A DNA stretch of 41,925 nucleotides from an uncultured Burkholderiales bacterium. GTDB taxonomy: Bacteria > Actinomycetota > Acidimicrobiia > IMCC26256 > PALSA-610. The notes under the pieces are model-generated. The model was not told where the DNA came from. It saw nothing but the letters and a program-made list of their open reading frames with translations, and did no database searches. Location: assembly GCA_964558245.1 (NCBI GenBank), contig CAZLEC010000001.1, positions 1-41,925 on the forward strand, in the 5' to 3' direction. The translations under genes were made by a program, and so were the position numbers. Positions 649 through 36,428 of the stretch are shown here, piece by piece. Within the stretch, counting starts at the first letter, position 1. Every line of letters begins with the position of its first letter.

Positions 649-1655
649 TGCAGTGCCTCCTGCGTGATCAAGTTGTCGACGGGGTCGCCGGTGAGCGCGA
701 GGAACGCGGCCTCGAGGTTCGCGCCCAGCACTTCGATGTCGTGTGCGTCGGGGTACGCGGCGAGCAGCCCGCGCAACGCGGTGTCGGAGTCGGTGCAGGT
801 GAGGATCACGGCGTCGCCGTGCTGTTCGGCCGTCGCGACGCCGGCCAGCGCGCTGACCTTGTCCATCGGCGCGTTCGGGAGGGTCGCCCGGATCGACTTC
901 ATGCCCACGCGCGCTTTGATCTCGGTCGACGTACCGTCGGCCACGATCCGGCCCTGGGCCATGAGCACGATGCGGTCGGCGAACGCGTCGGCCTCTTCGA
1001 GGTAGTGCGTGGCGAAGATCACGGTCTTGCCGTCACGGGCGAAGTTGCGCATCGCCGACCAGAACGCGTGGCGGCCCTCCACGTCGAGCGCAACGGTCGG
1101 CTCGTCGAGCACGAGCAGTTCGGGATCGGCGACGATCGCGGTGGCGAACCGGACCCGTTGGGTCTGGCCCCCCGACAGCTTCTCCGTGCGCCGGTCGGCG
1201 ATGTCGGCCAGGCCGGTGAGCGCGAGGGCTTCGTCGACGCCGAGCGGGTTCGGGTAGAGCGAAGCGGTCAGCCGTACCAGCTCCCGGATGGTGAGCTGGC
1301 CGATGAGCGAGCCGGTCTGGAGCATCCCTCCGATGGCGCCCGCGGCCACCGCGTCGGTCGGATTCATCCCGAACAGCGCCACCTCGCCCCGGTCGGGTCG
1401 CGACAGGCCGAGCACCATGTCGATGGTGGTCGACTTGCCGGCCCCGTTCGGGCCGAGGATGGCGACGGTCTCGCCCGGCGCGATGTCGAGGTCGATGCCG
1501 CGAACGGCGTGGACCGGTCCGAATGACTTCTCCAGGCCGGTGAGCGAGATCCCGGCCCGCGGGGGTGAATACGTCGGCTGCATGCCTCGATCGTGCGCCT
1601 CCCCGGCGCTTCCGACCAGTCGCGGGCGTGACGAGTCGGGCATGACGAATGTCAT
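645..1655 (-). CDS. ABC transporter ATP-binding protein (ABC-2/DrrA-like exporter subunit)
   Basis: Walker A GPNGAGKST, ABC signature LSGGQTQR, Walker B LLVLDEPT and H-loop FATHYLEE are present. It is translationally coupled to the downstream permease. The start is uncertain: ATG 1655, or ATG 1583 (MQPTYSPP...). Confidence 0.92.
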   Translation of the reverse strand: MTFVMPDSSRPRLVGSAGEAHDRGMQPTYSPPRAGISLTGLEKSFGPVHAVRGIDLDIAPGETVAILGPNGAGKSTTIDMVLGLSRPDRGEVALFGMNPTDAVAAGAIGGMLQTGSLIGQLTIRELVRLTASLYPNPLGVDEALALTGLADIADRRTEKLSGGQTQRVRFATAIVADPELLVLDEPTVALDVEGRHAFWSAMRNFARDGKTVIFATHYLEEADAFADRIVLMAQGRIVADGTSTEIKARVGMKSIRATLPNAPMDKVSALAGVATAEQHGDAVILTCTDSDTALRGLLAAYPDAHDIEVLGANLEAAFLALTGDPVDNLITQEALQ

Positions 1656-1685
1656 GTATGCAGCGCGGCCGGGCCGCGCGTGCGA

Positions 1686-2030
1686 CTACGCGGTCTGTGC
1701 CACTCGGTTGGTCTCCAGTGCCGTACGCGACGAGCACGGGCTGCTCGGGTAGTGCGACGCGACCGTCACAACGTGCGTGTACGCCGCGGTGTGCATGCAT
1801 TCGGAGCTTCCGTGAACCACTTCGATGTCACCGCGAACGTGTGCGGGTTCCAGGACCACGGTCAGCTTGTGCGGGCTCCCGACCGATCCGAACGCGCTCT
1901 GGGCCACTGCGCCCAGGCCCGCGGACGCCGCGACGATCGCGAGCGCTGCGCACAGCAGGCGGCGGGTACGTCGCGGTGCCCGGCCCGATCCGGCCCCGTC
2001 GTGGTGGTTGTGCGCGGCGGCGGTGGTCAT
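1686..2030 (-). CDS. Small secreted protein of unknown function (His-rich N-terminus, twin-arginine-like signal)
   Basis: An internal ATG at 2030 within ORF 1686..2180 is preceded by GGAGGA 5 nt upstream (reverse complement of 2036-2041). The product starts MTTAAAHNHHDGAGSGRAPRRTRRLLCAALAIVAASAGLGAVAQSAFG, which reads as a charged n-region with TRRLL, a hydrophobic core and an Ala-rich cleavage region. It sits 30 nt upstream of the ABC ATPase gene on the same strand. I recognise no family. Confidence 0.55.
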   Translation of the reverse strand: MTTAAAHNHHDGAGSGRAPRRTRRLLCAALAIVAASAGLGAVAQSAFGSVGSPHKLTVVLEPAHVRGDIEVVHGSSECMHTAAYTHVVTVASHYPSSPCSSRTALETNRVAQTA

Positions 2031-2170
2031 CGTGATCCTCCGTGTCTCGGCGTCCGATCCGGTCGGATTCGCTGATCTCAGGATCCACCAAAGCCGGTGC
2101 GGCGTCCGTCGTCGACCCGACCGACGGTGTGTGTCGCCGCGCACACTCGAGCGCCCCGGCGACGCGACCG

Positions 2171-2261
2171 AGCCCGACACCCGTAGCGGATGTCGGGCCC
2201 TTCGGCGTCGGTGCTCAGTGGTGCCGATTCGATGTGATCGGGATGTGGAACGTCCGACCGG
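2171..2261. repeat. Copy A of a ~91-94 nt dispersed repeat (gene 3' end plus hairpin); partner at 9247-9340
   Basis: I aligned it by hand to 9247-9340 in the same orientation. Identical blocks are agcccgacaccc, gtagcgg, tgtcgggccc, gctcagtggtgccgattcg and cgtccgaccgg. Identity by eye is roughly 80-85 percent. Confidence 0.85.
2172..2198 (-). terminator. Stem-loop GCCCGACACCC-GTAGC-GGATGTCGGGC (11-bp stem, one mismatch), putative intrinsic terminator without a U-tract
   Basis: The inverted repeat is read directly from the sequence. It lies 17 nt past the stop (2215-2217) of the decayed minus-strand gene copy and is homologous to the hairpin at 9248-9275. Confidence 0.45.
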
Positions 2262-2552
2262 ATCGGTCGCCGTCTGGGAGAGGTGCGGGGTTCACCGGCA
2301 GTACCCGAGGGCGGTGAGCGTGCCCGGGTCGGCGAAGTTCTCAGCGGTCACGGTCCAACGGTGAGTCGTTTCGGCGGTCCAACCGAACGGCTCGACACCG
2401 GGGTAGGTCCTGTTCGTGAGAGCTCTTGCGTGGAAGCTCGCGAGCAGGCCCCCGAACACCAATGAGGTCCCCTTCGGGCAAGCAGCCGTCGCGCGTCCAC
2501 GGTGTCGGGGTCTCGGTCGTCGGCAGTACCGATGCAGTGTGCCGCCGCACAC
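2215..2552 (-). pseudogene. Truncated, frame-disrupted paralogue of the secreted-protein gene at 9294-10007
   Basis: Frame 1 (2215-2340) ends ...LPVNPAPLPDGDRSGRTFHIPITSNRHH*. The intact gene ends ...LPPLPVGQHV...GRTLQITVTPNRHH*. The similarity continues upstream only in another frame (ORF 2292..2552: ...CPKGTSLVFGG...TAENFADPGTLTALGYCR*, versus CSIPEGKWLVLTPGG...PADNILGLPAGPALTASDLY). The N-terminal ~125 codons, including the signal peptide, are absent. Confidence 0.55.
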
Positions 2553-2641
2553 ACTTCGGCCCCGTGCCCGGCCGTGCGTTCGCGGCGTCGTTCGCGGATC
2601 TTGTCGGCAGATCGGCGGTATTGCATGCGAGACTCCGACGC

Positions 2642-3289
2642 ATGGCGACGCGGCTGCTCGACTCGCTGGCCGAAGACGACCGGCGAACCGTGCTGGCCGC
2701 CGCGCGGCGGCGACGTTTCACCCGCGGCGAGGTGGTGTTCCACGACGGCGACCCCGGCGACACGTTGCACCTGATCGTGAAAGGCCACTTCGCGATCCGG
2801 ATCACCACTCCTTTGGGTGATGTCGCGACTGTGCGGGTGCTCGGCCCGGGTGAACATTTCGGTGAGCTCGCGGTGTTGGAGCCGGGCCCGCGGCGAGGGA
2901 GCGTGGTGTCGCTCGAAGCCGGCGAGACGATGAGCCTGCATCGCGACGACTTCGCCGGGCTGCGCGCAACCATGCCGGAGCTCGATCAGGTGCTGACCGC
3001 GGCGCTGGTGGTGGAGGTCCGCCGGCAGGCGTCGGCGTTGGTCGACGCGTTGTACGTTCCGGTCGAGCGGCGAGTGTGGCGACGGCTCGCCGACCTCGTC
3101 GAGCTGTACGGAGATGACTCTCCCGTTGTCATTCCGCTGACCCAGGACGACCTTGCGCAGTTGGCGGGCACGACTCGCCCGACAGCCAATCGCGTCCTGC
3201 GCACCGGTGAGGAACAGGGCGTCGTGGCACTGGCGCGGGGCCGGATCGAGGTGCTCGACCTCGCCGCGCTACAACGTCTCGCGCGCTAA
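2642..3289 (+). CDS. Crp/Fnr family transcriptional regulator (cNMP-binding domain plus C-terminal HTH)
   Basis: The start is ATG 2642 (MATRLLDSL...) within ORF 2426..3289. The cNMP-binding beta-roll motifs are FTRGEVVFHDGDPGDTLHLIVKG and GPGEHFGELAVL...RRGSVVS. The HTH reads LTQDDLAQLAGTTRPTANRVLRTGEEQGVV. Confidence 0.9.
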   Translation: MATRLLDSLAEDDRRTVLAAARRRRFTRGEVVFHDGDPGDTLHLIVKGHFAIRITTPLGDVATVRVLGPGEHFGELAVLEPGPRRGSVVSLEAGETMSLHRDDFAGLRATMPELDQVLTAALVVEVRRQASALVDALYVPVERRVWRRLADLVELYGDDSPVVIPLTQDDLAQLAGTTRPTANRVLRTGEEQGVVALARGRIEVLDLAALQRLAR

Positions 3290-3314
3290 ACCCGCGACCC
3301 TGAACGCGCGTCAC

Positions 3315-3339
3315 GCCCGACACGCACGGTGTGTCGGCC
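3315..3339 (+). terminator. Stem-loop GCCCGACAC-GCACGGT-GTGTCGGCC (7 contiguous bp plus a closing G-C), possible crp terminator or attenuator
   Basis: The inverted repeat is read directly from the sequence, 26 nt after the crp stop. It shares the GCCCGACAC arm with the hairpins at 2172 and 9248. Confidence 0.35.
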
Positions 3340-3530
3340 TCGGCACAGATCCGACACCGCGTTGATCGCACAGTGAGGGCTCGGCATGGCACGACTGCTG
3401 CGCAGCCGGGGAGGTGGGTATCGTGTCCGAGGCCCCGAAGAGAGCTCCTGGATCAGTCGCTCGGCGCCGCATCGAGGCGCCGGTGGGAACACCGCGAGGC
3501 TCGGGCCGGGCCGAGTGGGGGGAGACGCGA

Positions 3531-6500
3531 ATGGGAACCGTCACGTTCCTGTTCCTCGACGAGCCCGGCGACGGCGACGCGAGCCCCTCGCGCCGCGGTG
3601 TGTTGGCCGGCGACGTGCTGGCCGCAGTTCGCGCGTGCATCACGGCCTGGGGAGGCCACGAGCTCGATCTCACCGTCGACGGTTTGGGCGTGGTGTTCCC
3701 GAGCGCGGCCGCCGGGGTTGCGAGCGCGCGGGCGATGCAGCGCGCGGTGCGGACGCTGAATGGTGGAGGGCCGGGCGCGTTACGCGTCGGCGTGCACACG
3801 GGTGAGCCGCTGGCGATCCCCGGGGGCCGCTATTTCGGGGCGGCGGTATGGCTCGCGGCGCGGCTCCACAAGCGCGCGGCGCCGGGCCAGATCCTGGTCT
3901 CCGACACCGTGTTCGAGTTGCTCGATGCGACCGGCCGGGCTCGGTGCACGCCGGTCGGGTCGCTCGACCTGAAGGGCCTGAGCGACCGCGTCGTCGCGTT
4001 CGACGCGTCCTGGTCCGATGCCGGTATGCCGGCCGATGTCGACGTGGCCGGGCTGCGGACGGTCACCCTGATGACGGTCGACCAGGTGGGCTCGACCGCG
4101 CAGATCGACACGCTCGGCGACGAGTCGGCGCGCGCGATCCACGCCGCGTTGCTCGACGTGTTGCGCGAAGCGATCGGCGACCACGGCGGTCGAGAGGTGG
4201 AGTACACGGGTGACGGTTTGACTGCGATGTTCGATGCCGCGCTCGACGCGACGGGCTGCGCGGTCGCGATGCAGCAGGCCGCGTACCGCCATCGTTTGCG
4301 GTATCCGTCGGAGCAGGGCCTCGCGTTGCGTGTCGGGATCCAGAGCGCGGAAGCGGTCGCCGAGAATCGCGATTCTTGGACGGGCACTGCCCAACAAGCC
4401 GGCGCACTGTGCAGCGCGGCCGGCAACGGCGAGATCGTGGTGTCGCGGTTGGTGCGCGCGATCGCGGCGCCGCGCCGCATACACGTGTTCGAGCCGTTCG
4501 CCGAGGCCGAAGCGCCGGCCCGTGACGACGGCGCGCGGTTCTTGTTGCGTTGGGAACCGGAGCTCTCCGAGTTCAGCCTGCCGGCCGATCTCGTGGCGAA
4601 GCTGGGTCAGTTCGGATTCGTCGGCCGGCACGACGAGCTCGAACGGCTGGTGCGATTGTGGGCCGACGCGCGAGCGGGCGAGCCGCGCGTCGCGCTCGTG
4701 TCGGGTGGCGCGGGAATCGGGAAGTCGTCGCTCGCGGCGCACTTTGCCGAGATTGCGTGTGAAGGCGCGTCTACGATCGTGCTGTACGGCGCGTGCCGGT
4801 TGGGCCCACGCGACGACTACGAGCCGTTCGCCGACGCGCTTGCGCAGTACGTCTCGGCGACGTCGCGCGCGGATCTCCGCCGCCAAGTCGGAGCCCACGC
4901 GCCCGTGCTTGCGAGCGTGATCCCCGGCCTCGCGGCGCGCCTTCCCGACGTGCCCGGCGAGGTCGCGACCGGTGACGCCGAGGTGGCAGCAGTTGGTCGG
5001 GCGATCGAGGCGTTCGTTGCTGCGATCGCGCAGACCGCGCCGGTCCTGCTCGTGATCGACGATCTCCAGAACGCTGCTGCCTCGACACTTCGCGTGCTCC
5101 GCCAGGTGGCCACCACCGGCGGGTCGGTCGCCCTGATGGTCGTCGGTCTGTTCCGTGATCCCGTCGCGGGGCGTTCGCCGGTGCTCGACGCGCTCGGCGT
5201 CGACCCCGCGCGTCGCGACCAGACCGAGCACCTGGTGATCGAAGGTTTGTCCGACGATGACGTCGCCGTGCTCGTCGAGGCCGTCACACACGTCGCGCCG
5301 AGCGCCCTGACGCGCGACGCGATCGCCGCGCAGTCGGACGGCGTCCCGTACGCGGTGGTCGAGTCGGCCCGCTCGCAGATGGAGCAAGGCGTCACCTCGG
5401 ACCTTCGCCGCGCGATCGAGCAGGCCGACCACGCCCGGCTCGATCGCCGCGAGCTCCGTGAGGAGATCGCGCGCGGCGTCCTCGAGATCCAGCGGCTCCG
5501 CCAGCCGCTCGCCGCCCTGCCCGAGATCGCTGCCGGGAGCGTCGACCGCGACGGCACCCCACCCGCGCCCGGACCGTGTCCCTACCGCGGGCTGGAATCG
5601 TTCAAGGCCGGCGATGTGGAATGGTTCTTCGGGCGCGAGCAGCTCGTCGCCGAGCTCGTCGCGCATGTCGCGGGTTCGAAGCTCGTCGGCGTGATCGGCG
5701 CGTCGGGAAGTGGGAAGTCGTCGCTCGTGCGCGCCGGTCTGGTGCCCGCGCTCGACTCCGGCGCGCTGCCCGGCGCGGAGCAGTGGTTGAGCCTGGTCAT
5801 GACGCCGACCGCGCGGCCGCGGCAATCGCTCGCACTCGCGTGCGCAGCATCCGGCCGGATCAGCGGCGAGGCGGCACGCGACTTGCTCGAAGGCAGCGAG
5901 CTCGCACCACTGGTCGAGCGGCTCGTCGGGAGTGCCGGCGAGCGGGTCGTGCTGGTCGTCGACCAATGCGAAGAGCTCTTCATCGCCGCGTCCGAAGAAG
6001 AACGCGAACGGTTCGTCGACATGATCGTCGGCGCCGCCGCCGATCCCGGCGTTCCGATCACGCTGATCCTGGTGTTGCGCGCCGACTTCTACGGTGCGTG
6101 TGCCCAATATCCCGGCCTCGCCGATCGTCTCGAAGACAGTCAGGTGCTCGTCGGCGCGATGAGCGCCGACGAGATCCGCCGCACCATCGAGCTGCCCGCG
6201 CGTCACGCCGGGCTCGTGCTCGAATCCGGGTTCGCCGACGCCGTCATCGCCGATGTGAGCGGCGAGCCCGGCGGACTGCCGCTGTTGTCGACCGCGCTGC
6301 TCGAAACGTGGGCACGGCGGCGCGGGCGCAGCCTCACCCTGGCCGCGTACGCGGAGACCGGCGGGGTGCGCAGCGCCGTCGCGCGGCTCGCCGACAGCGT
6401 GTACGACGGGTTGGATCCTGCCGATCGCGATATCGCCCGGCGCATGCTGTTGCGTCTCGCGCGGCCCGGGAGCGACGACACCGTCGGCGACGTGCGCCGG

Positions 6501-9173
6501 CGGGCCCCACTCGGTGAGCTCGTCGCCGACGATCCCGCGGCGCAGCGCGTGCTCGGCCGGCTCGTCGAGCGGCGACTCGTGACCACCGACGAGCACACCG
6601 CCGAAGTTGCACACGAAGCCGTGCTGCGCGAATGGCCCCAGCTCCGGGAATGGCTCGACGACGACCGCGAGGGCCGGCGCATTCACCACCAGCTCGCCGA
6701 TGCGACCCACGAGTGGGAGAGCGCGGCACGCGATCCCGAGCACCTGTACCGAGGCGCGCGCCTGGCCGCCGCTGTCGACTACGCCACGATGCACGCGGCC
6801 GATCTGAACCCGCTGGAGCACGAGTTCCTCGCGGCCGGGCGGGCCCGAGCGACCGCCGAGCTTGACGCGTCGCAGCGCAGCGCCCGAAGGTTCCGCCGCC
6901 TCACGGCCGGTCTCGTGGTCATCCTCGTCGTCGCGCTGATCGCCGGCTCCTTCGCGCTCATCCAACGCGAAGACGCCCGCAGTCAACGCAACACCGCTCG
7001 CACTCAGCGCGACCGCGCGACGCAACAAGCCCGCCTGGCCAATGCGAGCCGGCTCGCGACCGTCGCCGTGAGCGGCGCGCCAGACGATCTCTCCCGTTCC
7101 GCGTTGCTCGCGATCGAGGCGAACCGGCTCGACGACAACGCCCAGACCCGAGGCGCGATCCTCAGCGTCGCCGAAGACGCGGCACCGGTGCGCGAGATCA
7201 TTCACGGGTCGTGGGAAACAGCCGCGATGAGCGCGGACGGCCGAACGGTCGCGACGGTGGGTGCTCGGGGCATCTCGATCGTCGACTTGAAGACCCGGCG
7301 CAGCCGCTCCATCAGCCGGCGGAACTTCAGCGGCATCCGAAGCGTGAGTTTCTCGTCCGACGGCAAACTCCTCGCGCTCGGCGGCAACGACGTCGAGATC
7401 CTCGATGCGCACTCGGGCGCTCCCGCCCGCGCGCCGTTCCGCTTCACCGACCAGACCGGGCCGGGGCGCACCCTCGTCGTGCACGTTCGATTCAATCCCG
7501 ACGGCTCGAGCATCGCGGCCATCGACAACAACGGCGGCGGATACTTGTGGTCCTTGGCGAACGGCGCGGAGCTGGCACATTTCGCCACCGGCAGCTACGG
7601 AAGCGGCTCCAGCAACGTCGTGTTCAGCCCCGACGGAAAGTGGCTCACGCTCACCGACAGTCATGCGGTCGTGTACAGCGCGCACTCGTTCCGGGCGGGC
7701 CAACTCGAGCCGCGATACCGCGCACAGCCGTACGTCGGCTTCAGTGAGTTCGACGTCGCGTTCTCTCCCGACGGCAACCGGTTCGCGGCCGCGACCGGCG
7801 GCGGCCAGATCCTCTTTCGGGATTCCGCGACAGGCGCGGAGGTCGGCCCGGCGATCTCGACCGGAACGGGAGTCGGGAGACTGGCGTTCAGTCCTGACGG
7901 CACCGCCATCGCGGGAACCCGCGCCGGCAGGATCTCGGTTTGGGACACTCGGGAGAGTGTGGGGGGCAGTCAGTCGGGCGAGCTCCTCGACGACACTCTG
8001 CTCGGCGGGACGCGCGCGACGGTGGCGTTGAGCTACGCGCCCGACGGCGCGTTGGTCGTGCTGACGACTGCCGAGATCGTGGTGCTCGATCCGCCGGCGC
8101 GACTCGGCACGTTCATTGCGCCGTCGAGCCCGATTCGGGGTTACGGCATCGAATCGCTGGCGGCCGCTCCCGACGGTCGCTCGATCGCGGCCGCCGACGG
8201 GCTCGGACGAGTACGGGTCTGGGACTTGGCCTCCGGCACGCTCGAACGAACGATCAACGCGACGACGCCGGCCGAGAGCGCGCAAGCCGTTGCGTACCAG
8301 CCCGGCACCGGGACGATCGTGGTCGGCTCGGGTGACGGAACCGTCACAGCGTGGGATCCGCGAACCGGTCGGCAGATCCACAGCCCACTTCGTTTGACAC
8401 CTCCGAGCGTGCCCGTGAACGGCAACGTGTTCTCTCCCGGAGACGGTGTGTTCAGTGTTGCGTTCGACGCCGGCGGCCGTACCCTCGTTGCTGCGACCGG
8501 GGACGGCCGCGTCGTGGTCATCGACCCGCGTACCTGGAAAGTTCGCCGGACCATCCACCTCGTCAAGGACGTGATCGAGTCGACGAGCACGCTGGCGATA
8601 AGTCCCGACGGCAACACCGTCGCGCTGGGCGCGACCGGGGTCGTGGAAGTCTCCGATATCGACGGAACACACCGCCGACAGGTCAACGTCGGACCGTTCG
8701 CAATCGAGACGCTTGCCCTCGCACCCAACGGCTCGCTTCTCGCCGCCGGGCTCGAAGACGGTCGCGTCGTACTGGCAAACCTCGCGACCGCCCACGGAGC
8801 GGGAACCATCGTGTCGAACCACGGTGGTGCCATCGCGCTCGCGTTCGACGCCAAAGGCACGACGCTCGCCGTCGGCGGCGACGACGGCGACGTCACCCTC
8901 TGGAGCGTCGCCGACCGGCAAGCAGTCGGTCCGCCCCTCTCGTCTTCCCAATCGCTCGGCATCTCCGGGCTGGCCTTCTCGCCCGACGGCAACAGCCTGT
9001 TCGCGGCCGCGGGCGACCTCTCGGTCGTGCGCTACGACCTCCGACCAACCGAACAGATCGAACGACTCTGCGCCCTGATCGGCCGCAACCTCAGCCGCGC
9101 CGAACGCGAGACATATCTCGCAGATCCGACTTCGGGTAGCCAGACCTGCCCGCAATGGCCGGCCGGTACCTGA
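3531..9173 (+). CDS. Giant multidomain signalling protein: 2 x class III cyclase-homology domain, AAA_16-type STAND ATPase, nSTAND/NACHT-like NTPase, hydrophobic span, 14 WD40-like blades (1,880 aa)
   Basis: ATG 3531 is preceded by GGGGGGAG (3517-3524).
- CHD1 (3531-4013): VTFLFLDEPGDG, TVDGLGVVF, LRVGVHTGE, AVWLAARL.
- CHD2 (4056-4448): VTLMTVDQVGST, YTGDGLTAMF, LRVGIQSAE.
- First ATPase: FVGRHDELERL, Walker A GGAGIGKS (4704-4727), Walker B VLLVIDDL (5043-5066).
- Second NTPase: CPYRGLESFKAGDVEWFFGRE, GASGSGKS (5697-5720), VVLVVDQCEE (5946-5975).
- Hydrophobic LTAGLVVILVVALIAGSFALI (6900-6962).
- Fourteen xFSPDGxxLA-type blades (7215-9041). Confidence 0.93.
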   Translation: MGTVTFLFLDEPGDGDASPSRRGVLAGDVLAAVRACITAWGGHELDLTVDGLGVVFPSAAAGVASARAMQRAVRTLNGGGPGALRVGVHTGEPLAIPGGRYFGAAVWLAARLHKRAAPGQILVSDTVFELLDATGRARCTPVGSLDLKGLSDRVVAFDASWSDAGMPADVDVAGLRTVTLMTVDQVGSTAQIDTLGDESARAIHAALLDVLREAIGDHGGREVEYTGDGLTAMFDAALDATGCAVAMQQAAYRHRLRYPSEQGLALRVGIQSAEAVAENRDSWTGTAQQAGALCSAAGNGEIVVSRLVRAIAAPRRIHVFEPFAEAEAPARDDGARFLLRWEPELSEFSLPADLVAKLGQFGFVGRHDELERLVRLWADARAGEPRVALVSGGAGIGKSSLAAHFAEIACEGASTIVLYGACRLGPRDDYEPFADALAQYVSATSRADLRRQVGAHAPVLASVIPGLAARLPDVPGEVATGDAEVAAVGRAIEAFVAAIAQTAPVLLVIDDLQNAAASTLRVLRQVATTGGSVALMVVGLFRDPVAGRSPVLDALGVDPARRDQTEHLVIEGLSDDDVAVLVEAVTHVAPSALTRDAIAAQSDGVPYAVVESARSQMEQGVTSDLRRAIEQADHARLDRRELREEIARGVLEIQRLRQPLAALPEIAAGSVDRDGTPPAPGPCPYRGLESFKAGDVEWFFGREQLVAELVAHVAGSKLVGVIGASGSGKSSLVRAGLVPALDSGALPGAEQWLSLVMTPTARPRQSLALACAASGRISGEAARDLLEGSELAPLVERLVGSAGERVVLVVDQCEELFIAASEEERERFVDMIVGAAADPGVPITLILVLRADFYGACAQYPGLADRLEDSQVLVGAMSADEIRRTIELPARHAGLVLESGFADAVIADVSGEPGGLPLLSTALLETWARRRGRSLTLAAYAETGGVRSAVARLADSVYDGLDPADRDIARRMLLRLARPGSDDTVGDVRRRAPLGELVADDPAAQRVLGRLVERRLVTTDEHTAEVAHEAVLREWPQLREWLDDDREGRRIHHQLADATHEWESAARDPEHLYRGARLAAAVDYATMHAADLNPLEHEFLAAGRARATAELDASQRSARRFRRLTAGLVVILVVALIAGSFALIQREDARSQRNTARTQRDRATQQARLANASRLATVAVSGAPDDLSRSALLAIEANRLDDNAQTRGAILSVAEDAAPVREIIHGSWETAAMSADGRTVATVGARGISIVDLKTRRSRSISRRNFSGIRSVSFSSDGKLLALGGNDVEILDAHSGAPARAPFRFTDQTGPGRTLVVHVRFNPDGSSIAAIDNNGGGYLWSLANGAELAHFATGSYGSGSSNVVFSPDGKWLTLTDSHAVVYSAHSFRAGQLEPRYRAQPYVGFSEFDVAFSPDGNRFAAATGGGQILFRDSATGAEVGPAISTGTGVGRLAFSPDGTAIAGTRAGRISVWDTRESVGGSQSGELLDDTLLGGTRATVALSYAPDGALVVLTTAEIVVLDPPARLGTFIAPSSPIRGYGIESLAAAPDGRSIAAADGLGRVRVWDLASGTLERTINATTPAESAQAVAYQPGTGTIVVGSGDGTVTAWDPRTGRQIHSPLRLTPPSVPVNGNVFSPGDGVFSVAFDAGGRTLVAATGDGRVVVIDPRTWKVRRTIHLVKDVIESTSTLAISPDGNTVALGATGVVEVSDIDGTHRRQVNVGPFAIETLALAPNGSLLAAGLEDGRVVLANLATAHGAGTIVSNHGGAIALAFDAKGTTLAVGGDDGDVTLWSVADRQAVGPPLSSSQSLGISGLAFSPDGNSLFAAAGDLSVVRYDLRPTEQIERLCALIGRNLSRAERETYLADPTSGSQTCPQWPAGT

Positions 9174-9246
9174 ACCGGCGGCGACGATGGAGGCTATGCA
9201 ACCTTGTTGTCGGCGTCGTTCGCGTTGCGTCACGGCAACGCGAAGA

Positions 9247-9340
9247 AGCCCGACACCCGGTAGCGGGTGTCGGGCCCCTTCGAAGGTCTGCGCTCAGTGG
9301 TGCCGATTCGGCGTGACCGTGATTTGCAACGTCCGACCGG
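9247..9340. repeat. Copy B of the dispersed repeat (3' end of gene 9294-10007 plus its hairpin); partner at 2171-2261
   Basis: Hand alignment with 2171-2261; see copy A. Confidence 0.85.
9248..9275. terminator. Perfect 11-bp stem-loop GCCCGACACCC-GGTAGC-GGGTGTCGGGC between convergent genes (likely bidirectional terminator)
   Basis: The inverted repeat is read directly from the sequence. It lies 75 nt after the stop of the plus-strand giant gene (9173) and 19 nt after the stop of minus-strand gene 9294-10007. Confidence 0.55.
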
Positions 9341-10007
9341 GCGTCCAGCCGGCATTGACTCCCGTGTCGTACCGAGCGAACTCGGTGATCACGTGCTGAC
9401 CGACGGGCAGTGGCGGCAACTCCACGAGGTACAAGTCACTCGCGGTGAGCGCGGGCCCGGCGGGCAGCCCGAGGATGTTGTCGGCGGGCAACTCGAGCGT
9501 CTGGATCGACGTCGTCCGGGTCCGGTCGAGGTGCCGCAACGGGTTGCCGTCGACCGTCACGTCGACCTCGCCGATGTCGTCGGTTGCGGCTTTCGCTTCG
9601 GCCCGAAGGACACTTGCGCTGTCCGTGGGATTGTCCTGGGTTTCGATGGTGCCCCCCGGGGTCAGCACGAGCCACTTGCCCTCGGGGATCGAGCACGTCG
9701 TCTGTTGATTGACGTCACTCGCGGCTGGCAGGAACCACACGGGTCCCTGTTCGTCGGGGGTGCAGATCGTCGGGTCGGCGAGTGGGTTGTCGGCAGTCGG
9801 GAGGTCGAACGACCACTGTGTCCACGCTGCGGCCTCGCTGTTCTGTGAGGAGTGCGAGAACGAATCCGACTGACCTCCCTGTGCACACGCGCCTGCGACC
9901 GACGCCGTAGCCAACGCAAGTGCGCACGCGCCGGCGAGCACCCCGGCGACTTTCGAGGAACGTCGATGACGCGCCACCCATCGTGTATGGCTCTTCTCCG
10001 TGATCAT
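9294..10007 (-). CDS. Secreted protein or lipoprotein of unknown function
   Basis: An internal ATG at 10007 is preceded by GGAAGGA. The product starts MITEKSHTRWVARHRRSSKVAGVLAGACALALATASVAGACAQ, which has a charged n-region, a hydrophobic core and Cys-containing lipobox-like sites. I recognise no family. It has a decayed paralogue at 2215-2552. Confidence 0.75.
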   Translation of the reverse strand: MITEKSHTRWVARHRRSSKVAGVLAGACALALATASVAGACAQGGQSDSFSHSSQNSEAAAWTQWSFDLPTADNPLADPTICTPDEQGPVWFLPAASDVNQQTTCSIPEGKWLVLTPGGTIETQDNPTDSASVLRAEAKAATDDIGEVDVTVDGNPLRHLDRTRTTSIQTLELPADNILGLPAGPALTASDLYLVELPPLPVGQHVITEFARYDTGVNAGWTPGRTLQITVTPNRHH

Positions 10008-10169
10008 GCTGTTTCCTTCCATAGTCGGCTTCATGACTGTCGCTATCACTGTGCGGGAGTGGCCGCAATAAATCCGTGGTTTCGCGCACGCCCGCACCGT
10101 GTCCGCCGACACAGACCGGGCAACTCGTCCGCCTCGGGAGCGGAACGGTGCCTCCGGCGGTGTGTCCCG

Positions 10170-11132
10170 CTATTGGATTCGCGCAAGCTCCGCGAGGAGG
10201 TCGTCGTCGAGTGGCCTCGCCCTGAAACCGACGTCGAGGTCGACCTCGGCGGCGGACCGCGCGCCGACGAGCACGGTGGTGACCGCCGGGTGGCGCATCG
10301 CGAACTGCAGCGCGGCGGCTCCGAGCGGGATGCCGCGGGCGCGGCACGCGTCGCGGAGGCGTCGCGCGCGCTCGAGCACTGCGCCGGTGGCCGCGGCGTA
10401 GTCGTAGGTCGGGTGCGCGTCGGGATCGATGAGCACGCCGGTGTTGAACACGCCTCCGATGATCACCCCGACGCCCCGTGCCGCGCACCGCGTCAGGAGG
10501 TCGGCCCCACTGCGATCGAGGAGCGAGTAGCGGCCGGCGAGCAGCACGCAATCGAGGTCGACGCGCTCGACGAATCGCTCGAGCATCGCGGACTGGTTCA
10601 TCCCGCACCCGACCGCGCCCACGACGCTTTCGTCGCGTAGCCGCAAGAGGGTCGGAAACGCGGTGCGGAGCGCGTCGGCTTCGTGGGCGTCGGGGTCGTG
10701 CACGAGCGCAACGTCGATGCGGTCGGTGCCGAGACGGGTCAGGCTCGCTTCGAACGATCGCATGATCCCGTCGTGCGAGAAGTCGAACTCGGGCTCGAGG
10801 TCGCCGACATCGGTGAAGATGGTCGCCGTTCGTGCGGGCCCGGCCGGTCGCAACACTCTCCCGACTTTGGTCGACAAGACGTATTCACCTCGCGGTCGGC
10901 CGCGCAACGCCCGTCCGACGCGGCGCTCGCTCACGCCGTGCCCGTCGAGTGGCGCGGTGTCGAAGTAGCGAACGCCCGCGTCCCAGGCCGCGTCGACGGT
11001 CGCGCGCGCGTCTTCGTCGGAGACTCCGGAGAACAGGTTGCCGATCGGCGCGCACCCGAGTCCGAGTGCCGTGACCGCGGGTCCGCGCCGGCCGAGCGGC
11101 CGCGGAGACGACCAGTCGTCGATCTTCGTCAC
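10170..11132 (-). CDS. Aldo/keto reductase, D-threo-aldose (L-fucose) 1-dehydrogenase-like
   Basis: GTG start at 11132-11130 overlaps the fucD stop (GTGA). The product VTKIDDWSSPRPLGRRGPAVTALGLGCAPIGNLF...AWDAGVRYFDTAP...LSTKVGR...DVALVHDPD...IIGGVFNTG has the AKR fold pattern. The upstream part of ORF 10170..11846 is out-of-frame shadow inside fucD. Confidence 0.88.
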   Translation of the reverse strand: MTKIDDWSSPRPLGRRGPAVTALGLGCAPIGNLFSGVSDEDARATVDAAWDAGVRYFDTAPLDGHGVSERRVGRALRGRPRGEYVLSTKVGRVLRPAGPARTATIFTDVGDLEPEFDFSHDGIMRSFEASLTRLGTDRIDVALVHDPDAHEADALRTAFPTLLRLRDESVVGAVGCGMNQSAMLERFVERVDLDCVLLAGRYSLLDRSGADLLTRCAARGVGVIIGGVFNTGVLIDPDAHPTYDYAAATGAVLERARRLRDACRARGIPLGAAALQFAMRHPAVTTVLVGARSAAEVDLDVGFRARPLDDDLLAELARIQ

Positions 11133-12418
11133 CGCCGCCACACGGCGCCGTCGGGGAACGCGAGTGCCGCGTACGAGTCGGGGAGCAGATCCACCGAGTA
11201 GCCGGCCGCGGTGGGCAGCACGTAGCGGCCGTCGCGCGCGACTGCCGGGTGCACGAAGTGCTCGTGGAGATGGTCGGCGAACTCGGTCGTCCGGTCGTCG
11301 AGTGAACCGCTCACGCACACGTAGTCGATCGCGCAGAGATGCTGCACGTACTCGCACAGGCCGAGCCCGCCGGCGTGCGCGCACACGGGAACGCCGAACT
11401 TGGCGGCGAGCAGGAGCACGGCCAACACCTCGTTGACCCCGCCGAGCCGGCACGCGTCGATCTGGCAATAGTCGATGGCCTCGGCCTGCATCAGCTGCTT
11501 GAACACCACACGGTTCGCCGCGTGCTCTCCGGTGGCGACGCCGACGGGCGCGACCGCGCGGCGAATGGCCGCGTGCCCGAGGATGTCGTCGGGGCTCGTG
11601 GGCTCCTCGATCCACCGGAGGCCGAACGGCTCGAGGTGGCGCATGCGCTCGATCGCTTCGCCGACGTCCCACACCTGATTGGCGTCGGCCATGAGCGGGA
11701 GATCGCCGATCTCCTCGCGCATCACCTCGCAACGGCGAACGTCGCCGGCGAGGTCGAGGCCGACCTTGGTCTTGAAGCAGCGCCAGCCGTCGGCGAGCGC
11801 CCGGCGGCACAGGTCGCGCACGGTCGCTTCGTCGTAGCCGAGCCAACCGGCCGACGTGAGGTACGCGGGATACCCCGTGCGCTCCAGCTCGGCGACGCGT
11901 TCGGCGCGTGTCGGTGCGAGCGCACGCAGCATGTCGAGCGCTTCATCCGGGTCGAGCACGTCGGTGAGGTAGCGAAAGTCGACGCTCGCGACGAGCTGCT
12001 CGGGCGAGAGGTCGGACACGAGGCGCCAGAGCGGCTTGTGTTCGACGCGCGCCCACAGATCCCAGACCGCGTTCACGATCGCCGCCGTCGCGAGGTGGAT
12101 GACGCCCTTTTCCGGTCCGAGCCAGCGGAGCTGCCCGTCGTTGGTGAGGCGCCGCCAGAACGCGGCCCCGTCGGCGACGAGCTCCTCGAGCTCGCGCCCG
12201 ACGACCAGTGGCGCGAGCTGCTCGATCGCCGCGCAGCACAGGTCGTTGCCGCGACCCACGGTGAACGTCATGCCGACACCCTCGTGCGGGCCGTCGGTCG
12301 CGAGGAACACGTACGCGCCCGAGTAGTCGGGGTCTTGGTGCACCGCATCGGAGCCGGCGAGCGTGATCGACGTCGGGGCCCGGATGTCGAGCGTGCGGGC
12401 ACCGGTGATGCGGGTCAT
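11129..12418 (-). CDS. fucD: L-fuconate dehydratase (enolase superfamily, mandelate racemase subgroup)
   Basis: The full-length 429-aa product has the FucD/ENOSF1-type N-terminus TLDIRAPTSITLAGSDAVHQDPDYSGAYVFLATDG...MTFTVGRGND. The enolase-superfamily barrel motifs KTKVG, ADANQVWD, WIEEPTSPDD, ATGEH and QIDACRLGG are present. Confidence 0.93.
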   Translation of the reverse strand: MTRITGARTLDIRAPTSITLAGSDAVHQDPDYSGAYVFLATDGPHEGVGMTFTVGRGNDLCCAAIEQLAPLVVGRELEELVADGAAFWRRLTNDGQLRWLGPEKGVIHLATAAIVNAVWDLWARVEHKPLWRLVSDLSPEQLVASVDFRYLTDVLDPDEALDMLRALAPTRAERVAELERTGYPAYLTSAGWLGYDEATVRDLCRRALADGWRCFKTKVGLDLAGDVRRCEVMREEIGDLPLMADANQVWDVGEAIERMRHLEPFGLRWIEEPTSPDDILGHAAIRRAVAPVGVATGEHAANRVVFKQLMQAEAIDYCQIDACRLGGVNEVLAVLLLAAKFGVPVCAHAGGLGLCEYVQHLCAIDYVCVSGSLDDRTTEFADHLHEHFVHPAVARDGRYVLPTAAGYSVDLLPDSYAALAFPDGAVWRR

Positions 12419-12424
12419 CTCGGC

Positions 12425-12446
12425 AGCATGTTAGAAGGAGCATGTT
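12425..12446. promoter_or_regulatory. Direct repeat AGCATGTT-N6-AGCATGTT in the 54-nt divergent fucD / SDR intergenic region (candidate operator)
   Basis: The two 8-mers at 12425-12432 and 12439-12446 are read directly from the sequence. This is the only non-coding DNA between the two divergent operons. Confidence 0.3.
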
Positions 12447-12472
12447 GGCGGCAATGTGAGGGGAGCGGAGCG

Positions 12473-13177
12473 ATGCCGGAACGGGTGGTAGTGGTCACGG
12501 GATCGGTCGGCGGGATCGGCTCGGCCATCGTCGACCACTTCACCGCGCGCGGCGACACAGTGGTCGGTCTCGACCTGCTCGACGGCGTCGACGTGTCGCG
12601 ACCCGACGATTGCGCCGCCGCGGTCGCACGGATCTTCGCGGAACACGGCCGCATCGACGTGCTCTGCAACAACGCGGGCGTCGGAGCCACCGGCGACGTC
12701 GTGGCGTCTTCGCCCGAGGAGTGGCAACGCGTGTTCGGGGTCAACGTGTTCGGTGTCGCGAACATGTCGCGCGCGGTGCTGCCCACGATGCGCGCCGCCG
12801 GGCGGGGTGCGATCGTCAACACCTGTTCGGTGGTCGCTTCGGTCGGCTTGGTCGATCGTGCGGTGTACTCGGCGTCGAAAGGTGCGGTGCTCGCCTTGAC
12901 CCGCGCCATGGCCGCCGACGAGATCGCCCACGGGATACGCGTCAACTGCGTGTCGCCGGGCACGGTCTCGAGCCCGTGGGTCGAACGCACCGTCGCCGCC
13001 CTCCCGGATCCCGAGGCCGGGTTCGAGGCGCTCCGCCGCCGGCAGCCGCTCGGGCGCATGGTCTCCTGCGCGGAGGTCGCCGCCGCGGTCGCGTATCTCG
13101 CCGACGACACGACCTTCACGACCGGCGCCGACTTCCTGCTCGACGGCGGGATCACCGGCGTGCGCATCGTCGAGTGA
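12473..13177 (+). CDS. Short-chain dehydrogenase/reductase, 2-keto-3-deoxy-L-fuconate dehydrogenase-like
   Basis: ATG 12473 follows GAGGGGAGCGGAG. The SDR motifs are TGSVGGIG (TGxxxGIG), NNAG and the catalytic YSASK. The gene sits in a fuconate-cluster context. The 5' 1.1 kb of ORF 11339..13177 is antisense shadow of fucD. Confidence 0.9.
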   Translation: MPERVVVVTGSVGGIGSAIVDHFTARGDTVVGLDLLDGVDVSRPDDCAAAVARIFAEHGRIDVLCNNAGVGATGDVVASSPEEWQRVFGVNVFGVANMSRAVLPTMRAAGRGAIVNTCSVVASVGLVDRAVYSASKGAVLALTRAMAADEIAHGIRVNCVSPGTVSSPWVERTVAALPDPEAGFEALRRRQPLGRMVSCAEVAAAVAYLADDTTFTTGADFLLDGGITGVRIVE

Positions 13178-13193
13178 TCGTCGAGGCGGAGTC

Positions 13194-14276
13194 GTGACGC
13201 TGCGCGTCGCTTTGGTCGGCGGTCCGATGTACGACCGGCTGTACGAGACGTTCGCACCGGGTGAGGTCGAGATCGTGGTTCACGCCGACCATCCGACCCT
13301 CAACCGGCGGGTGGCCGAGATGCTCGCGGCCGGTGAGCGCATCGACGTGCTCGCGACCCACTCGAAGTACGCGCCGTCGCAATCGCAATGGCTGCTCCCG
13401 CTCGACGACCTCGTCGACGACGCGGCCGTCGCGCCGTTGGCGCCGCGCGCGGTCGAGCTGTGTCGATTCGACGACGCGCAGCTCTGCTTACCCCGCCTGA
13501 TCGACGTGCGGGTGCTGTGGGTTCGCTCCGATCGGGTCGACCCCGCGCCCGACACGTGGGACGCGCTCCTTGCCTCCGACACCGTGTTCGGCTTCCCGGG
13601 GCGGGAGTCCGGCTTGTTCGGCAGCTTCTTCGAGCTCGTGGTCGGTCTCGGAGGTGGGCTGTTCGACGCCGAGGTGCACCCGACGATGGCCACCCGCGAA
13701 GCCGAGCAGGCGATCGAGACGCTCTGCCGCCTCGCGGCGCGCGCTCCCGCCGACCTCGTCGACTGGCACTACGACGAGGTCGATGCCGCGTTGCTCGACG
13801 GACGCGTCGACGCGGCCGCCGCGTGGCCCGGCGGATGGGGTGCGATACGCACGTCGGCGCTCGCCGACCGGCTGGTGCCGCATCCCTATCCGGCCGGTCC
13901 GGCTCGGCGGGTCTCCTACGCCGGCTGCCACGCGTGGGCCGTCCCGAGAACCTGCGCAGACGTCGACGGCGCGCTCGCGCTGCTCCGGCGATTGCTGGAC
14001 ACCGAGCGGCAAGCGATCGACGCGGCCGGCGGGAGCATCTGCGCGCACCGCGGAGCACTCGCCGAGGTCGAGCCGCACGGCGAGATCGACCGCCGTCGTC
14101 TCGAGATCACGCGCCAGATGATCGACGACGCCATGATCACGTACCCGCCGCTCGTCCGGTTCCCCGAGATCGAAGACGCCGGATGGTCGGCGATCCGCGA
14201 CGCGCTCCGCGGCCAGTGCTCCCCGGCCGCGGCCGCGCGTGCTATCCAGTCGGTGTCGGAGCAAATCCTTGCGTAA
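13194..14276 (+). CDS. Periplasmic solute-binding-protein-like protein lacking any signal peptide
   Basis: GTG 13194 follows GGCGGAG. The sequence begins directly with the first SBP beta-strand (LRVALVGGPMYDRL), followed by DVLATHSKY, LPRLIDVRVLWVRSD...TWDALL and GFPGRESGLFGSFFEL. This is family-1 SBP-like by eye. There is no hydrophobic leader or lipobox. Confidence 0.7.
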   Translation: MTLRVALVGGPMYDRLYETFAPGEVEIVVHADHPTLNRRVAEMLAAGERIDVLATHSKYAPSQSQWLLPLDDLVDDAAVAPLAPRAVELCRFDDAQLCLPRLIDVRVLWVRSDRVDPAPDTWDALLASDTVFGFPGRESGLFGSFFELVVGLGGGLFDAEVHPTMATREAEQAIETLCRLAARAPADLVDWHYDEVDAALLDGRVDAAAAWPGGWGAIRTSALADRLVPHPYPAGPARRVSYAGCHAWAVPRTCADVDGALALLRRLLDTERQAIDAAGGSICAHRGALAEVEPHGEIDRRRLEITRQMIDDAMITYPPLVRFPEIEDAGWSAIRDALRGQCSPAAAARAIQSVSEQILA

Positions 14277-14287
14277 CTGGGGCTGAC

Positions 14288-15496: not shown

Positions 15497-15510
15497 CTCG
15501 CCGAAGATCT

Positions 15511-15531
15511 CCGGTTGAAACGCTCAACCGG
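15511..15531 (+). terminator. Stem-loop CCGGTTGA-AACGC-TCAACCGG, putative terminator of the plus-strand catabolic operon
   Basis: A perfect 8-bp inverted repeat, 15 nt after the stop at 15494-15496. There is no clear U-tract. Confidence 0.45.
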
Positions 15532-15622
15532 CCTCAGGTGTTCGTAAAGTCTTGATGCCGTCACCGTTCGGATGGACCGACGCGACATGCTGAGTGTCGC
15601 GGCGCCGGCAGTTGGAGCACCT

Positions 15623-17701: not shown

Positions 17702-17903
17702 CGCGCAAGCCTCCCCGCCTCGATTTGCCGATCACCCTGGCAGACGGCCCGGGCGGGGCAAGGAATCGCGGCAAAGTCTTGACGGGTGCGTTACGTCAGT
17801 TGAGACGCGGGCGCCGCGCGAGGCGCGTCGCGCCGGCCGCGGCGTCTTTGGCCGGTGCTCCAGCTTGTGCGGGCCGCGCCGGGCGTGATCCGTTGGGAGT
17901 CTC

Positions 17904-19355: not shown

Positions 19356-19476
19356 CGGAGATGGCGACTCTTTACGAAGCCGTGAGACCTGGTGACCTCG
19401 CGTTTCGGTGTGCTTGCGCGCGGTTGGGCATGCTCTTCGCGTGTACGAGCGGGTAACGCGGTCGCGGCCTCGATCA

Positions 19477-20220: not shown

Positions 20221-20274
20221 GCAGGAGCGCGTAGCGAGCCTCGAGAAGGGCGCCGGCCCCTTAGCATCGGGCTC

Positions 20275-22247: not shown

Positions 22248-22250
22248 CGC

Positions 22251-30828: not shown

Positions 30829-31058
30829 CCGGCTCCCCCCGAAAGCTCCCAAACCGCCCGTATCTGCGTACACGATCCCACAGCGGGCGCCGTCCCGCCA
30901 GGGCGGGCGCCGGACGCCCGCCGGTAGGCGGTTTATGCGCCGGCCCATCGTGCCGGGCCGTGGTCGACGGATCCACTGCCGGTCGGGACCAAGGTCATCC
31001 GCTCGGCCCACGGGCGTGCGACCAACGGCCCTACTGGCGGGCCTCGCAGGTGTCGATC

Positions 31059-36328: not shown

Positions 36329-36428
36329 CCGAAATCCCGCGGGTACACCGGGCGTGCAACCTTTCGGGTGAGACTGTGGTCTGATCGTTCGGCCCGAGCG
36401 GCTCACCCGAACTCTCCGGGAGGTTCCC

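Follow-up and report, generated by a model that had tools for sequence, protein, structure and literature searches.

The putative receptor gene, its domain organization and its family

The stretch of DNA analysed here (the window) comprises 41,925 nucleotides (nt) of contig CAZLEC010000001.1, assembly GCA_964558245.1, with a G+C content of about 69%. The subject of this work is the gene at positions 3531–9173 of its forward strand, which codes for a putative membrane receptor of 1,880 amino acids (aa), together with the gene of a Crp/FNR-type regulator that ends 241 nt before it on the same strand. The features of this locus are the following, with the kind of evidence in brackets:

2642..3289, + strand: Crp/FNR-type regulator, 215 aa (Pfam cNMP_binding 2.9e-20, HTH_Crp_2 1.4e-15)
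3531..9173, + strand: receptor gene (single uninterrupted open reading frame, ORF, of 1,880 aa plus stop codon)
3531..4025, + strand, aa 1–165: cyclase-homology domain 1, 'C2-like' (Pfam and alignment to Ma1120)
4053..4565, + strand, aa 175–345: cyclase-homology domain 2, 'C1-like' (Pfam, phmmer against the PDB, column analysis)
4596..5330, + strand: first STAND module, AAA_16 (MalT/AfsR-type) plus a helical domain with GxP motif (Pfam, motifs)
5331..5579, + strand, aa 601–683: charged linker between the NTPases, presumed helical (sequence, family alignment consensus)
5580..6737, + strand, aa 684–1069: second STAND module, nSTAND1 NTPase (Pfam)
6900..6962, + strand, aa 1124–1144: predicted transmembrane helix, LTAGLVVILVVALIAGSFALI (hydrophobicity, Arg cluster RSARRFRR before the helix)
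6963..7214, + strand, aa 1145–1228: helical stalk from the membrane helix to the propellers (AlphaFold2 model)
7215..9080, + strand: fourteen WD40/PD40-like blades (xFSPDGxxLA), tandem double propeller (Pfam, blade list, AlphaFold2 model)
9081..9170, + strand: C-terminal tail with the conserved Cys pair C1847/C1873 (motif C..GRNL..E...YL....C)

The original prediction, made from the letters of the DNA, had described one frame with six parts. All the motifs that it quoted translate at their coordinates, and the six-part architecture was borne out by Pfam matches, motifs and AlphaFold2 models. Across 3.4–9.2 kb, only the + frame ending at 9173 displays a coding-type bias of codon positions and of G+C at third positions (GC3). 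Its possible starts are GTG 3414 and ATG 3531. The latter is the likely one because it is preceded by the Shine-Dalgarno-like stretch GGGGGAGA, homologues share the opening M-x-T-x-T-F-L-F of the receptor, and gene callers picked the same codon in four other assemblies. An antisense ORF of 1,817 aa (3780–9233, - strand) was discarded: it fails the GC3/GC2 coding filter and looks like a shadow frame of high-G+C DNA. A scan of the window with Rfam gave no match.

Concerning the integrity of the gene, an identical 1,880-aa protein is found in a public collection, where it heads a cluster with four further members of 1,880 aa from JGI, ENA and Logan assemblies. The four aligned 1,880-aa members are at least 99% identical in each domain, with no local hypervariability. 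The pair formed by the Crp and receptor genes recurs in four ENA assemblies from different samples, with the same Crp gene and the same distance of 241 nt from it to the 1,880-aa gene; the one of these that was compared (L135) codes for a protein 99.9% identical to that of the window. The gene has thus been assembled independently at least five times, with no stop or frameshift to split it. Since proteins made up of cyclase + AAA_16 or of nSTAND1 + WD40 also occur on their own, two or three adjacent genes could be imagined to have been fused by an assembly chimera or a frameshift. However, the same 1,880-aa ORF is present in independent NCBI, JGI, ENA and Logan assemblies, and the junction is a conserved linker in at least 125 protein clusters with 30–50% mutual identity. 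The independent assemblies refute such an artefact for practical purposes, and the ORF is a real actinobacterial gene.

To survey the family, 1.84 billion representative proteins were searched in full by HMMER, with aa 1–1110 as the query. The 150 top matches, plus nine proteins from a first search (the receptor of the window included), made up the 157 proteins classified with hidden Markov models built for the purpose. An AAA_16-like module precedes nSTAND1 in 125 of the 157, which amounts to at least 125 protein clusters at 50% identity. One cyclase domain is present in 89 of the 125 dual-STAND clusters and two in 5, while none was detected in 31; the five cyclase-less members that were checked carry AfsR-like SARP heads (Trans_reg_C + BTAD). 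The two-switch design is therefore not rare, and what is rare is the tandem-cyclase form, with its five clusters. Public annotation gives the members generic labels such as 'class 3 adenylate cyclase/WD40 repeat protein' or 'nSTAND1 domain-containing NTPase'. The part of the earlier claim that concerned the literature held: no paper was found describing this domain order. In the papers on nSTAND1 and on the cyclic nucleoside monophosphate (cNMP) cyclases of conflict systems, and in a 2026 survey of prokaryotic STAND proteins, neither the domain order nor a linkage to Crp is described. The receptor is a combination of known kinds of parts: it belongs to a sizeable, common but unstudied family and represents a rare form of it.

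Cyclase pair, NTPase modules and predicted membrane topology

With respect to Pfam Guanylate_cyc (PF00211), whose gathering score is 21.9, domain 1 passed with 27.4 bits and domain 2 stayed just below with 19.3 bits (E 9e-4, profile positions 7–156 of 183). In a phmmer search of the PDB, domain 2 matched Ma1120 (E 1e-11). The AlphaFold2 model of aa 1–345 (mean predicted local distance difference test, pLDDT, 83.6; predicted template modelling score 0.82) resembles class III cyclases, with template modelling (TM) scores of 0.88 for Ma1120 and 0.81 for Rv1900c. The two cyclase domains of the original prediction are therefore present, although their limits (3531–4013 and 4056–4448) are better put as 3531–4025 and 4053–4565.

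The active sites of class III cyclases form across a dimer interface and, in the pseudo-heterodimeric enzymes, the metal ligands come from one domain and the contacts with the base and the transition state from its partner. In the alignment to Ma1120, domain 1 keeps the transition-state Arg (R111); the Lys and Asp positions of its base-specifying pair hold D46 and R100, its Asn position holds W107, and its metal/phosphate site is degenerate, with no GST loop and with VDG in the place of GDG. Domain 2 keeps both metal Asp (D184 and D228), a VGST loop and GDG, and has lost the Arg (A292); its specificity positions are occupied by E224 and D281, and the Asn position by Q288. The canonical substrate pair (Lys/Asp, or Glu with Cys, Ser or Gly) and the transition-state Asn are absent from both domains. 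The two metal Asp and the Arg are present but on different domains, so that one site requires the domains to pair. The same distribution occurs in the five tandem clusters: domain 1 keeps the Arg in 5/5, has Trp at the Asn position in 5/5 and has lost the GDG Gly in 5/5, and domain 2 keeps both metal Asp in 5/5 and has lost the Arg in 4/5. From these complementary losses, we infer that the tandem domains would form one composite active site of the C1/C2 kind.

The 99 single-cyclase members retain the catalytic core without exception, with Asp1 in 96/96, Asp2 in 98/98, the Gly of GDG in 98/98 and the Arg in 99/99. They differ at the Lys, Asp and Asn positions as follows:

Glu-Gly-Asn: 47 of the 99; guanylyl-cyclase-like Glu/Gly pair
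Lys-Asp-Val/Asn: 20 of the 99; adenylyl-cyclase-like
Asp-Gly or Asp-Arg (Lys/Asp positions): 11 of the 99; the clade of the window receptor
Asn-Asp-His: 5 of the 99; Rv1900c-like

The closest relative with a solved structure is Ma1120, an active adenylyl cyclase in which K101 and D157 contact the substrate, A164 occupies the Asn position and R168 is the Arg. Since Ma1120 is active with Ala at the Asn position, the loss of Asn in the clade is no evidence of inactivity. As judged from the aligned residues, the Asp/Arg or Asp/Gly specificity pair appears neither adenylyl-cyclase-like nor standard guanylyl-cyclase-like, and the identity of the cyclic nucleotide is not predictable from an Asp/Arg pair that matches neither Lys/Asp nor the usual Glu with Gly, Cys or Ser.

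The first NTPase gave an AAA_16 match over aa 363–537 (E 3e-25). The motif FVGRHDELERL begins at 4617, and both the Walker A (GGAGIGKS, K398, 4704–4727) and the Walker B (VLLVIDDL, 5043–5066) are intact; the GxP motif, SDGVPY, lies at about 5334. The linker that follows holds the family-conserved sequence R-x-DLR-x-x-REE...LQxLR and ends in DGTPPAPGP. The second NTPase matched nSTAND1 (PF20703) with E 1e-125 over profile positions 1–378 of 379. Its lead-in is CPYRGL...FFGRE (CPYRGLESF begins at 5577), with Walker A GASGSGKS (K729) at 5697–5720 and Walker B VVLVVDQCEE at 5946–5975. The two P-loop modules, which had seemed unrelated to each other, do belong to different families, and the second of them is an independent NTPase match in profile searches. 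The layout is the tripartite one of STAND proteins, with an N-terminal output, an NTPase and C-terminal repeats, to which the AAA_16 module is added in between. Searches of PDB sequences with each of the STAND modules detected no solved relative.

The identity to relatives is 48–56% in nSTAND1, 29–42% in AAA_16 and 23–32% in the WD40 region, so conservation is highest in nSTAND1 and lowest in the WD40 region, the fastest-evolving part of the receptor. Every relative whose sequence was read (P0003–P0006) has an intact P-loop in nSTAND1. The Walker A Lys of AAA_16 is intact in 105 of the 125 dual-STAND proteins and replaced or not found in about 20 (among them P0003, P0004, P0006, P0133, P0134, P0136, P0139 and P0140): in about 14 it is changed to Val, Ala, Thr or Arg, and in a further 6 no P-loop motif was found. 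Because the Lys is lost in about one in six relatives, the AAA_16 module could act as a scaffold, and this role seems the more general one.

The 21-residue hydrophobic span noticed in the original prediction, LTAGLVVILVVALIAGSFALI, translates at 6900–6962 and follows an Arg cluster. A comparable hydrophobic stretch, about 21 residues long, occurs some 50 residues after nSTAND1 in 147 of the 157 proteins, a set for which no cyclase was required and which includes SARP-output and truncated members. Its sequence varies and is uniformly apolar. The 15 residues that precede it contain 6.1 Lys plus Arg on average and the 15 that follow it 3.2, and in 140 of the 147 proteins the N side has the larger number. 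In the broader nSTAND1-WD40 set of the first search, the helix was found in 83 of 94 proteins, all 83 with N above C. By the positive-inside rule, the Arg cluster and the helix thus argue for a WD40 region predicted to be extracytoplasmic and about 1,120 N-terminal residues predicted to be cytoplasmic.

Many Pfam models of WD40 and other beta-propellers match aa ~1230–1845, and fourteen blades can be read straight from the sequence. The AlphaFold2 model of aa 1121–1880 (pLDDT 86.1) shows one continuous helix at aa 1122–1182 and an all-beta part at aa ~1220–1836; helices at model residues 2–62, 67–80 and 84–97 correspond to aa 1122–1217. With Foldseek, the model aligned over 640–700 columns (E 1e-36 to 1e-25) with tandem propellers of 14 blades, among them 2ymu, Aip1 (1nr0), Gemin5 and Utp21. 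The blade list and these matches agree with the two 7-bladed propellers anticipated from the blade count. As for cysteines, ten precede aa 858, the propellers lack them, and C1847 and C1873 are the only ones after aa 857. C1873 is invariant in an alignment of 32 sequences, and the tail motif C-x3-GR(N/D)L(T/S)-x2-EW-x2-YLP-x(5-8)-C (9069–9152, aa 1847–1873) was found as a strict regular expression in 92 of 220 family proteins. The Cys distribution fits an exported WD40 domain, of which the tail pair may be a disulfide.

The Crp neighbour and the genomic context

The start of the Crp gene was placed at M73 of a long ORF, a choice backed by homologues of 215 aa. The phosphate-binding cassette of the regulator reads FGELA...PRRGS, with Gly instead of the usual Ser/Thr after the Arg. 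It is predicted to be the reader of the cyclase product. Of 10 distinct loci in the clade of the window receptor, 8 have a gene with a cNMP-binding domain, usually Crp-type, no more than 8 kb from the receptor gene; these neighbours include transporters of the major facilitator superfamily (MFS):

Window locus: Crp directly upstream
L001 (P0002): Crp two genes upstream
L002 (P0003): Crp 10 nt downstream
L004 (Naasia): Crp 2.8 kb upstream
L005 (P0004): Crp, MFS + cNMP, cNMP + patatin, cNMP + aldehyde dehydrogenase
L054: MFS + cNMP
L056: Crp directly upstream
L057: Crp and MFS + cNMP
L008: no cNMP-binding neighbour
L058 (short contig): no cNMP-binding neighbour

A scan for loci was made with a 3-sequence alignment, and species-representative genomes added one family locus, L008. 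As a control, the other cyclase loci from the same scans had a cNMP-binding gene in 2 of 119 cases (Fisher p = 1e-9), or in 2 of 67 when limited to loci of at least 8 kb (p = 9e-8). The neighbour Crp proteins form two subgroups and the flanking genes vary among loci, so the linkage is not simple inherited synteny. In L005, the stretch 2904–16126 resembles a cNMP island around P0004, in which the start of the cNMP_binding + patatin gene overlaps the stop codon of the receptor gene. A parallel to the cyclase/Crp pairing is found among the kinase-headed nSTAND1-WD40 relatives, which are adjoined by a divergent FHA + GerE (helix-turn-helix, HTH) gene in 2/2 loci (L134, 7350–7952, and the P0041 locus); by analogy, this regulator is probably the matching reader of a phospho-signal.

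The conservation of the catalytic core throughout the family and the strong linkage to cNMP-binding genes support the view, already contained in the original prediction, that a second-messenger synthase occupies the output position, i.e., that the N-terminal cyclase would be the output of the receptor. The opposite explanation is that of a dead cyclase, whose domains would only dimerise or bind nucleotide, with Crp regulating the receptor gene by means of cyclic AMP made elsewhere. It would account for the low Pfam scores, with domain 2 under the gathering score, for neither domain having the full canonical set of residues (Asp or Glu at the Lys position, Trp or Gln at the Asn position), and for a Crp orthologue group far more widespread than the receptor. 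The first STAND module is itself decayed in some relatives, and inactive cyclase domains have been reported in related conflict systems. The residue losses, however, are complementary and not random, and every one of the five tandem clusters keeps them. Among 96–99 single-domain relatives, none has lost either metal Asp or the Arg, and Ma1120 is active although it lacks the Asn. Moreover, the linkage extends to cNMP-binding transporters, patatin and aldehyde dehydrogenase and to Crp subgroups that are not orthologous. On balance, a dead cyclase is considered unlikely.

The 241-nt gap between the two genes contains inverted and direct repeats that could be an operator, as the dead-cyclase explanation would have it: the 7-mers CCGACAC (3317), GTGTCGG (3331) and CCGACAC (3351), and also TGTG-N10-CACA. 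The CCGACAC/GTGTCGG set (3317–3357) is absent upstream of eight homologous genes, which speaks against that explanation, and it was not used as evidence. A scan of 2300–3700 displayed no promoter-like site and one terminator-like site, located inside the Crp gene, so that Crp and receptor may or may not be co-transcribed.

Two loci with orthologues of the window Crp are of a different composition. In L140, a gene for a 435-aa cyclase + AAA_16 protein (9698–11005) lies 50 nt downstream of a 76%-identical Crp orthologue. In L139, by an 82%-identical orthologue, there is only an inverted receptor fragment of 863 aa (1185–3776), which corresponds to aa 1029–1877 of the window receptor at 49% identity and lies beside a phage-type integrase. 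The receptor locus appears to be evolutionarily unstable.

The original prediction had compared the protein to the NLR-like/Avs-type conflict sensors. In its explicit form, this means a cytosolic sensor in which the WD40 region binds an invader protein, the STAND modules oligomerise, and the cyclase makes an alarm nucleotide that, by way of effectors activated by cNMP, triggers growth arrest or death, as in Pycsar or CBASS. The nSTAND1 domain (PF20703), named by Kaur et al. (2021), received its name in the context of predicted counter-invader systems, among whose effector domains the cNMP cyclases are listed. In agreement with such a role are also the fast evolution of the WD40 region, the fragment beside a phage-type integrase in L139, and the cNMP_binding + patatin phospholipase gene directly after the receptor in L005, which resembles effectors activated by cyclic nucleotides. 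PADLOC gave a weak PycC match on domain 2 (1.8e-4) and PycTIR-type matches on the cNMP domain of Crp. Nevertheless, the other PADLOC match on the receptor was mad8 (9e-6, on a P-loop), with no match to Avs or bNACHT, and for the receptor and its neighbours the defence models matched only by generic similarity of P-loop, ABC or cNMP domains. Concerning Pycsar in particular, the PycC match is weak, and the neighbour is a cNMP_binding + HTH_Crp_2 protein with no transmembrane or TIR domain. The predicted topology would place the sensor outside the cytoplasm. The usual partner is a transcription factor, and the other outputs are SARP or kinase with FHA-HTH, a logic that is regulatory and not suicidal. 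The ≥99% identity of the four aligned members, with no hypervariable zone, does not recall a sensor of invaders either. According to the 2026 survey, 198 of 589 prokaryotic STAND clades are classed as defence-associated. Finally, the window neighbourhood is one of ordinary chromosomal genes for housekeeping or transport (two enzymes, namely an aldo-keto reductase and one of the enolase superfamily, a solute-binding protein, and an ABC transporter accompanied by a two-component system, among others). A conflict sensor is thus improbable, and that comparison was not sustained.

Proposed mechanism and comparison with known systems

Starting from the observed domain order, motif integrity, family conservation and gene linkage, the reading that we favour, with a probability of roughly 55%, is that this protein of an Acidimicrobiia-type actinobacterium is a receptor that crosses the membrane once and would act as an outside-in transducer with a cyclic nucleotide as output. 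The fast-evolving propellers would bind a ligand or an envelope cue, and the helix and the stalk would relay the signal to nSTAND1 as the conserved primary switch, which would exchange nucleotide and drive oligomerisation as in other STAND proteins. The AAA_16 module, tied to nSTAND1 by the conserved charged helix, could be either a second gate or a scaffold that positions the output domain. In the single-cyclase relatives, oligomerisation would bring cyclases together into active dimers and so switch them on, because class III cyclases need the dimer interface. In the tandem form, domain 2 would give the metal Asp and the phosphate loop, and domain 1 the Arg, D46, R100 and W107; since the partner domain is built in, this form would be controlled allosterically instead. 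The Crp-type regulator encoded 241 nt upstream would then read the cyclic nucleotide and alter transcription. The output can be swapped within the family, as the same core of AAA_16, nSTAND1, transmembrane helix and WD40 occurs with SARP DNA-binding domains in the place of the cyclase.

Several observations weigh against the proposed receptor. The match of domain 2 falls just under the Pfam gathering score, and the model of aa 1–345 could not be superposed as a pair on the chains 7pdf_A and 6r4p_A of AC9 (root-mean-square deviation of about 18 Å, TMq 0.39), which were the only two-domain cyclase chains found for the comparison of pairing; the model therefore does not reproduce the canonical head-to-tail pairing. 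Because of the non-canonical residues at the base-specifying positions, the activity of the cyclase and its product are no more than putative. The predicted topology is derived from the positive-inside rule and composition alone, and no characterised precedent was found for a STAND protein that signals across a membrane. The neighbour statistic covers the Asp-clade nearest to the window receptor, with the Glu-Gly-Asn subgroup (43 cyclase-first clusters) outside the sample, and within that clade L008 and L058 do not show a cNMP-binding neighbour. Finally, the window Crp has thousands of homologues at 70–90% identity, some of them named Acidimicrobiia or Acidimicrobiales, from which the taxon of the host was deduced. 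A Crp from so widespread and conserved a group may have a general regulatory function and not be dedicated to the receptor.

Of the known systems, the closest to the N-terminal part are the Rv0386/Rv1358/Rv2488c-type proteins and the cyclase-AAA_16-TPR proteins of about 1,090 aa, which share a class III cyclase followed by AAA_16 with the GxP helical domain; the first 620 residues of the window receptor align with such proteins (P0103–P0120) at 33–38% identity. The canonical Asn is replaced in the Rv0386-type clade, where Val or Ala is the habit, as well as in the receptor. Unlike the Rv0386 type, the receptor has no TPR and no LuxR/GerE HTH (no Pfam match to them anywhere in it), and carries instead the coiled linker and the nSTAND1-transmembrane-WD40 part; its cyclase is duplicated and sub-functionalised, and the base pair is Asp/Arg and not Lys/Asp. 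The part from nSTAND1 onwards is shared with actinobacterial nSTAND1-WD40 proteins with HTH, SARP or kinase heads, which have nSTAND1, the Arg cluster and helix, the stalk, the 14 blades and the tail with the Cys pair. The receptor differs from them in the extra AAA_16 between output and nSTAND1, and in an output that is a cyclase and not a DNA-binding or kinase domain.

AfsR and the SARP-LAL proteins consist of SARP, an AAA_16-type NTPase and TPR, and sister members of the family carry the SARP + AAA_16 head of AfsR. From the comparison of SARP + AAA_16 with cyclase + AAA_16 heads, it follows that the head is an exchangeable cassette of 'output + first switch'. AfsR, however, is soluble and senses through TPR repeats and phosphorylation, whereas in the receptor the cassette is joined to a predicted membrane receptor. 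With the mammalian C1/C2 enzymes and soluble adenylyl cyclase, the tandem form shares two cyclase domains per chain, complementary losses and one catalytic site, which for the receptor is a putative one; it differs from C1/C2 in having the C2-like domain first, unusual Asp/Arg/Trp base positions and a model without the canonical pairing geometry. The PknD of M. tuberculosis has a cytoplasmic enzyme, one transmembrane helix and a propeller sensor outside. The layout predicted for the receptor is the same, except that PknD has no STAND modules. Pycsar shares the pairing of a class III-type cyclase with a cNMP-binding protein, but its partner is a toxic transmembrane or TIR protein and that of the receptor is a Crp-type transcription factor.

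A wider proposal, which we hold only tentatively, is that nSTAND1-transmembrane-WD40 proteins may be an unrecognised class of bacterial transmembrane STAND receptors, in which a double propeller outside the cell would govern NTPase-driven oligomerisation in the cytoplasm. Their dual-STAND cyclase branch would turn this event into a non-canonical cyclic nucleotide, to be read by dedicated Crp regulators, transporters and a patatin lipase. The STAND/NLR-type ATPases are understood as intracellular sensors. If the predicted topology is true, the same switch would serve transmembrane signalling, and STAND/NLR switching would extend from intracellular surveillance to outside-in signalling; a new second-messenger pathway would be added in Actinomycetota. 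The heads of cyclase (with cNMP regulators), kinase (with FHA-HTH) or SARP, of which the cyclase and SARP ones come with the extra AAA_16 module, make up a natural wiring experiment that renders the output pathway directly testable. The NTPases in series, the first of them decayed in some members, offer a way to learn what a second STAND module contributes. The tandem cyclase would be an independent bacterial case of C1/C2-type sub-functionalisation with unusual specificity residues, and the guanylyl-cyclase-like Glu/Gly pair, present in roughly half of the wider family, bears on the role of cyclic GMP in bacteria, about which little is known.

Some other features of the window deserve a mention. 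Some 10 kb further downstream, counted from the receptor gene, at 19396–20943, a DUF347 membrane protein is followed by an OmpR-type response regulator; the same pair is found at 19468–20939 in L001, the P0002 locus, and there is therefore some synteny between the organisms of the window and of L001. At 28864–31056 (- strand), a protein of 731 aa gave a strong match to the animal haem peroxidases (An_peroxidase, E 1e-100), a family uncommon in bacteria. Three ORFs have coding-type GC3 and no Pfam match (36372–38948, 859 aa; 22248–24458, 737 aa; 17889–19352, 488 aa), the first of them in a stretch with a G+C of 0.74–0.76 and an AT skew of -0.33 to -0.39. Lastly, a GGDEF-EAL protein, of cyclic di-GMP turnover, is encoded at 31314–33812, and a GGDEF-EAL gene occurs also upstream of the receptor homologue of L002.

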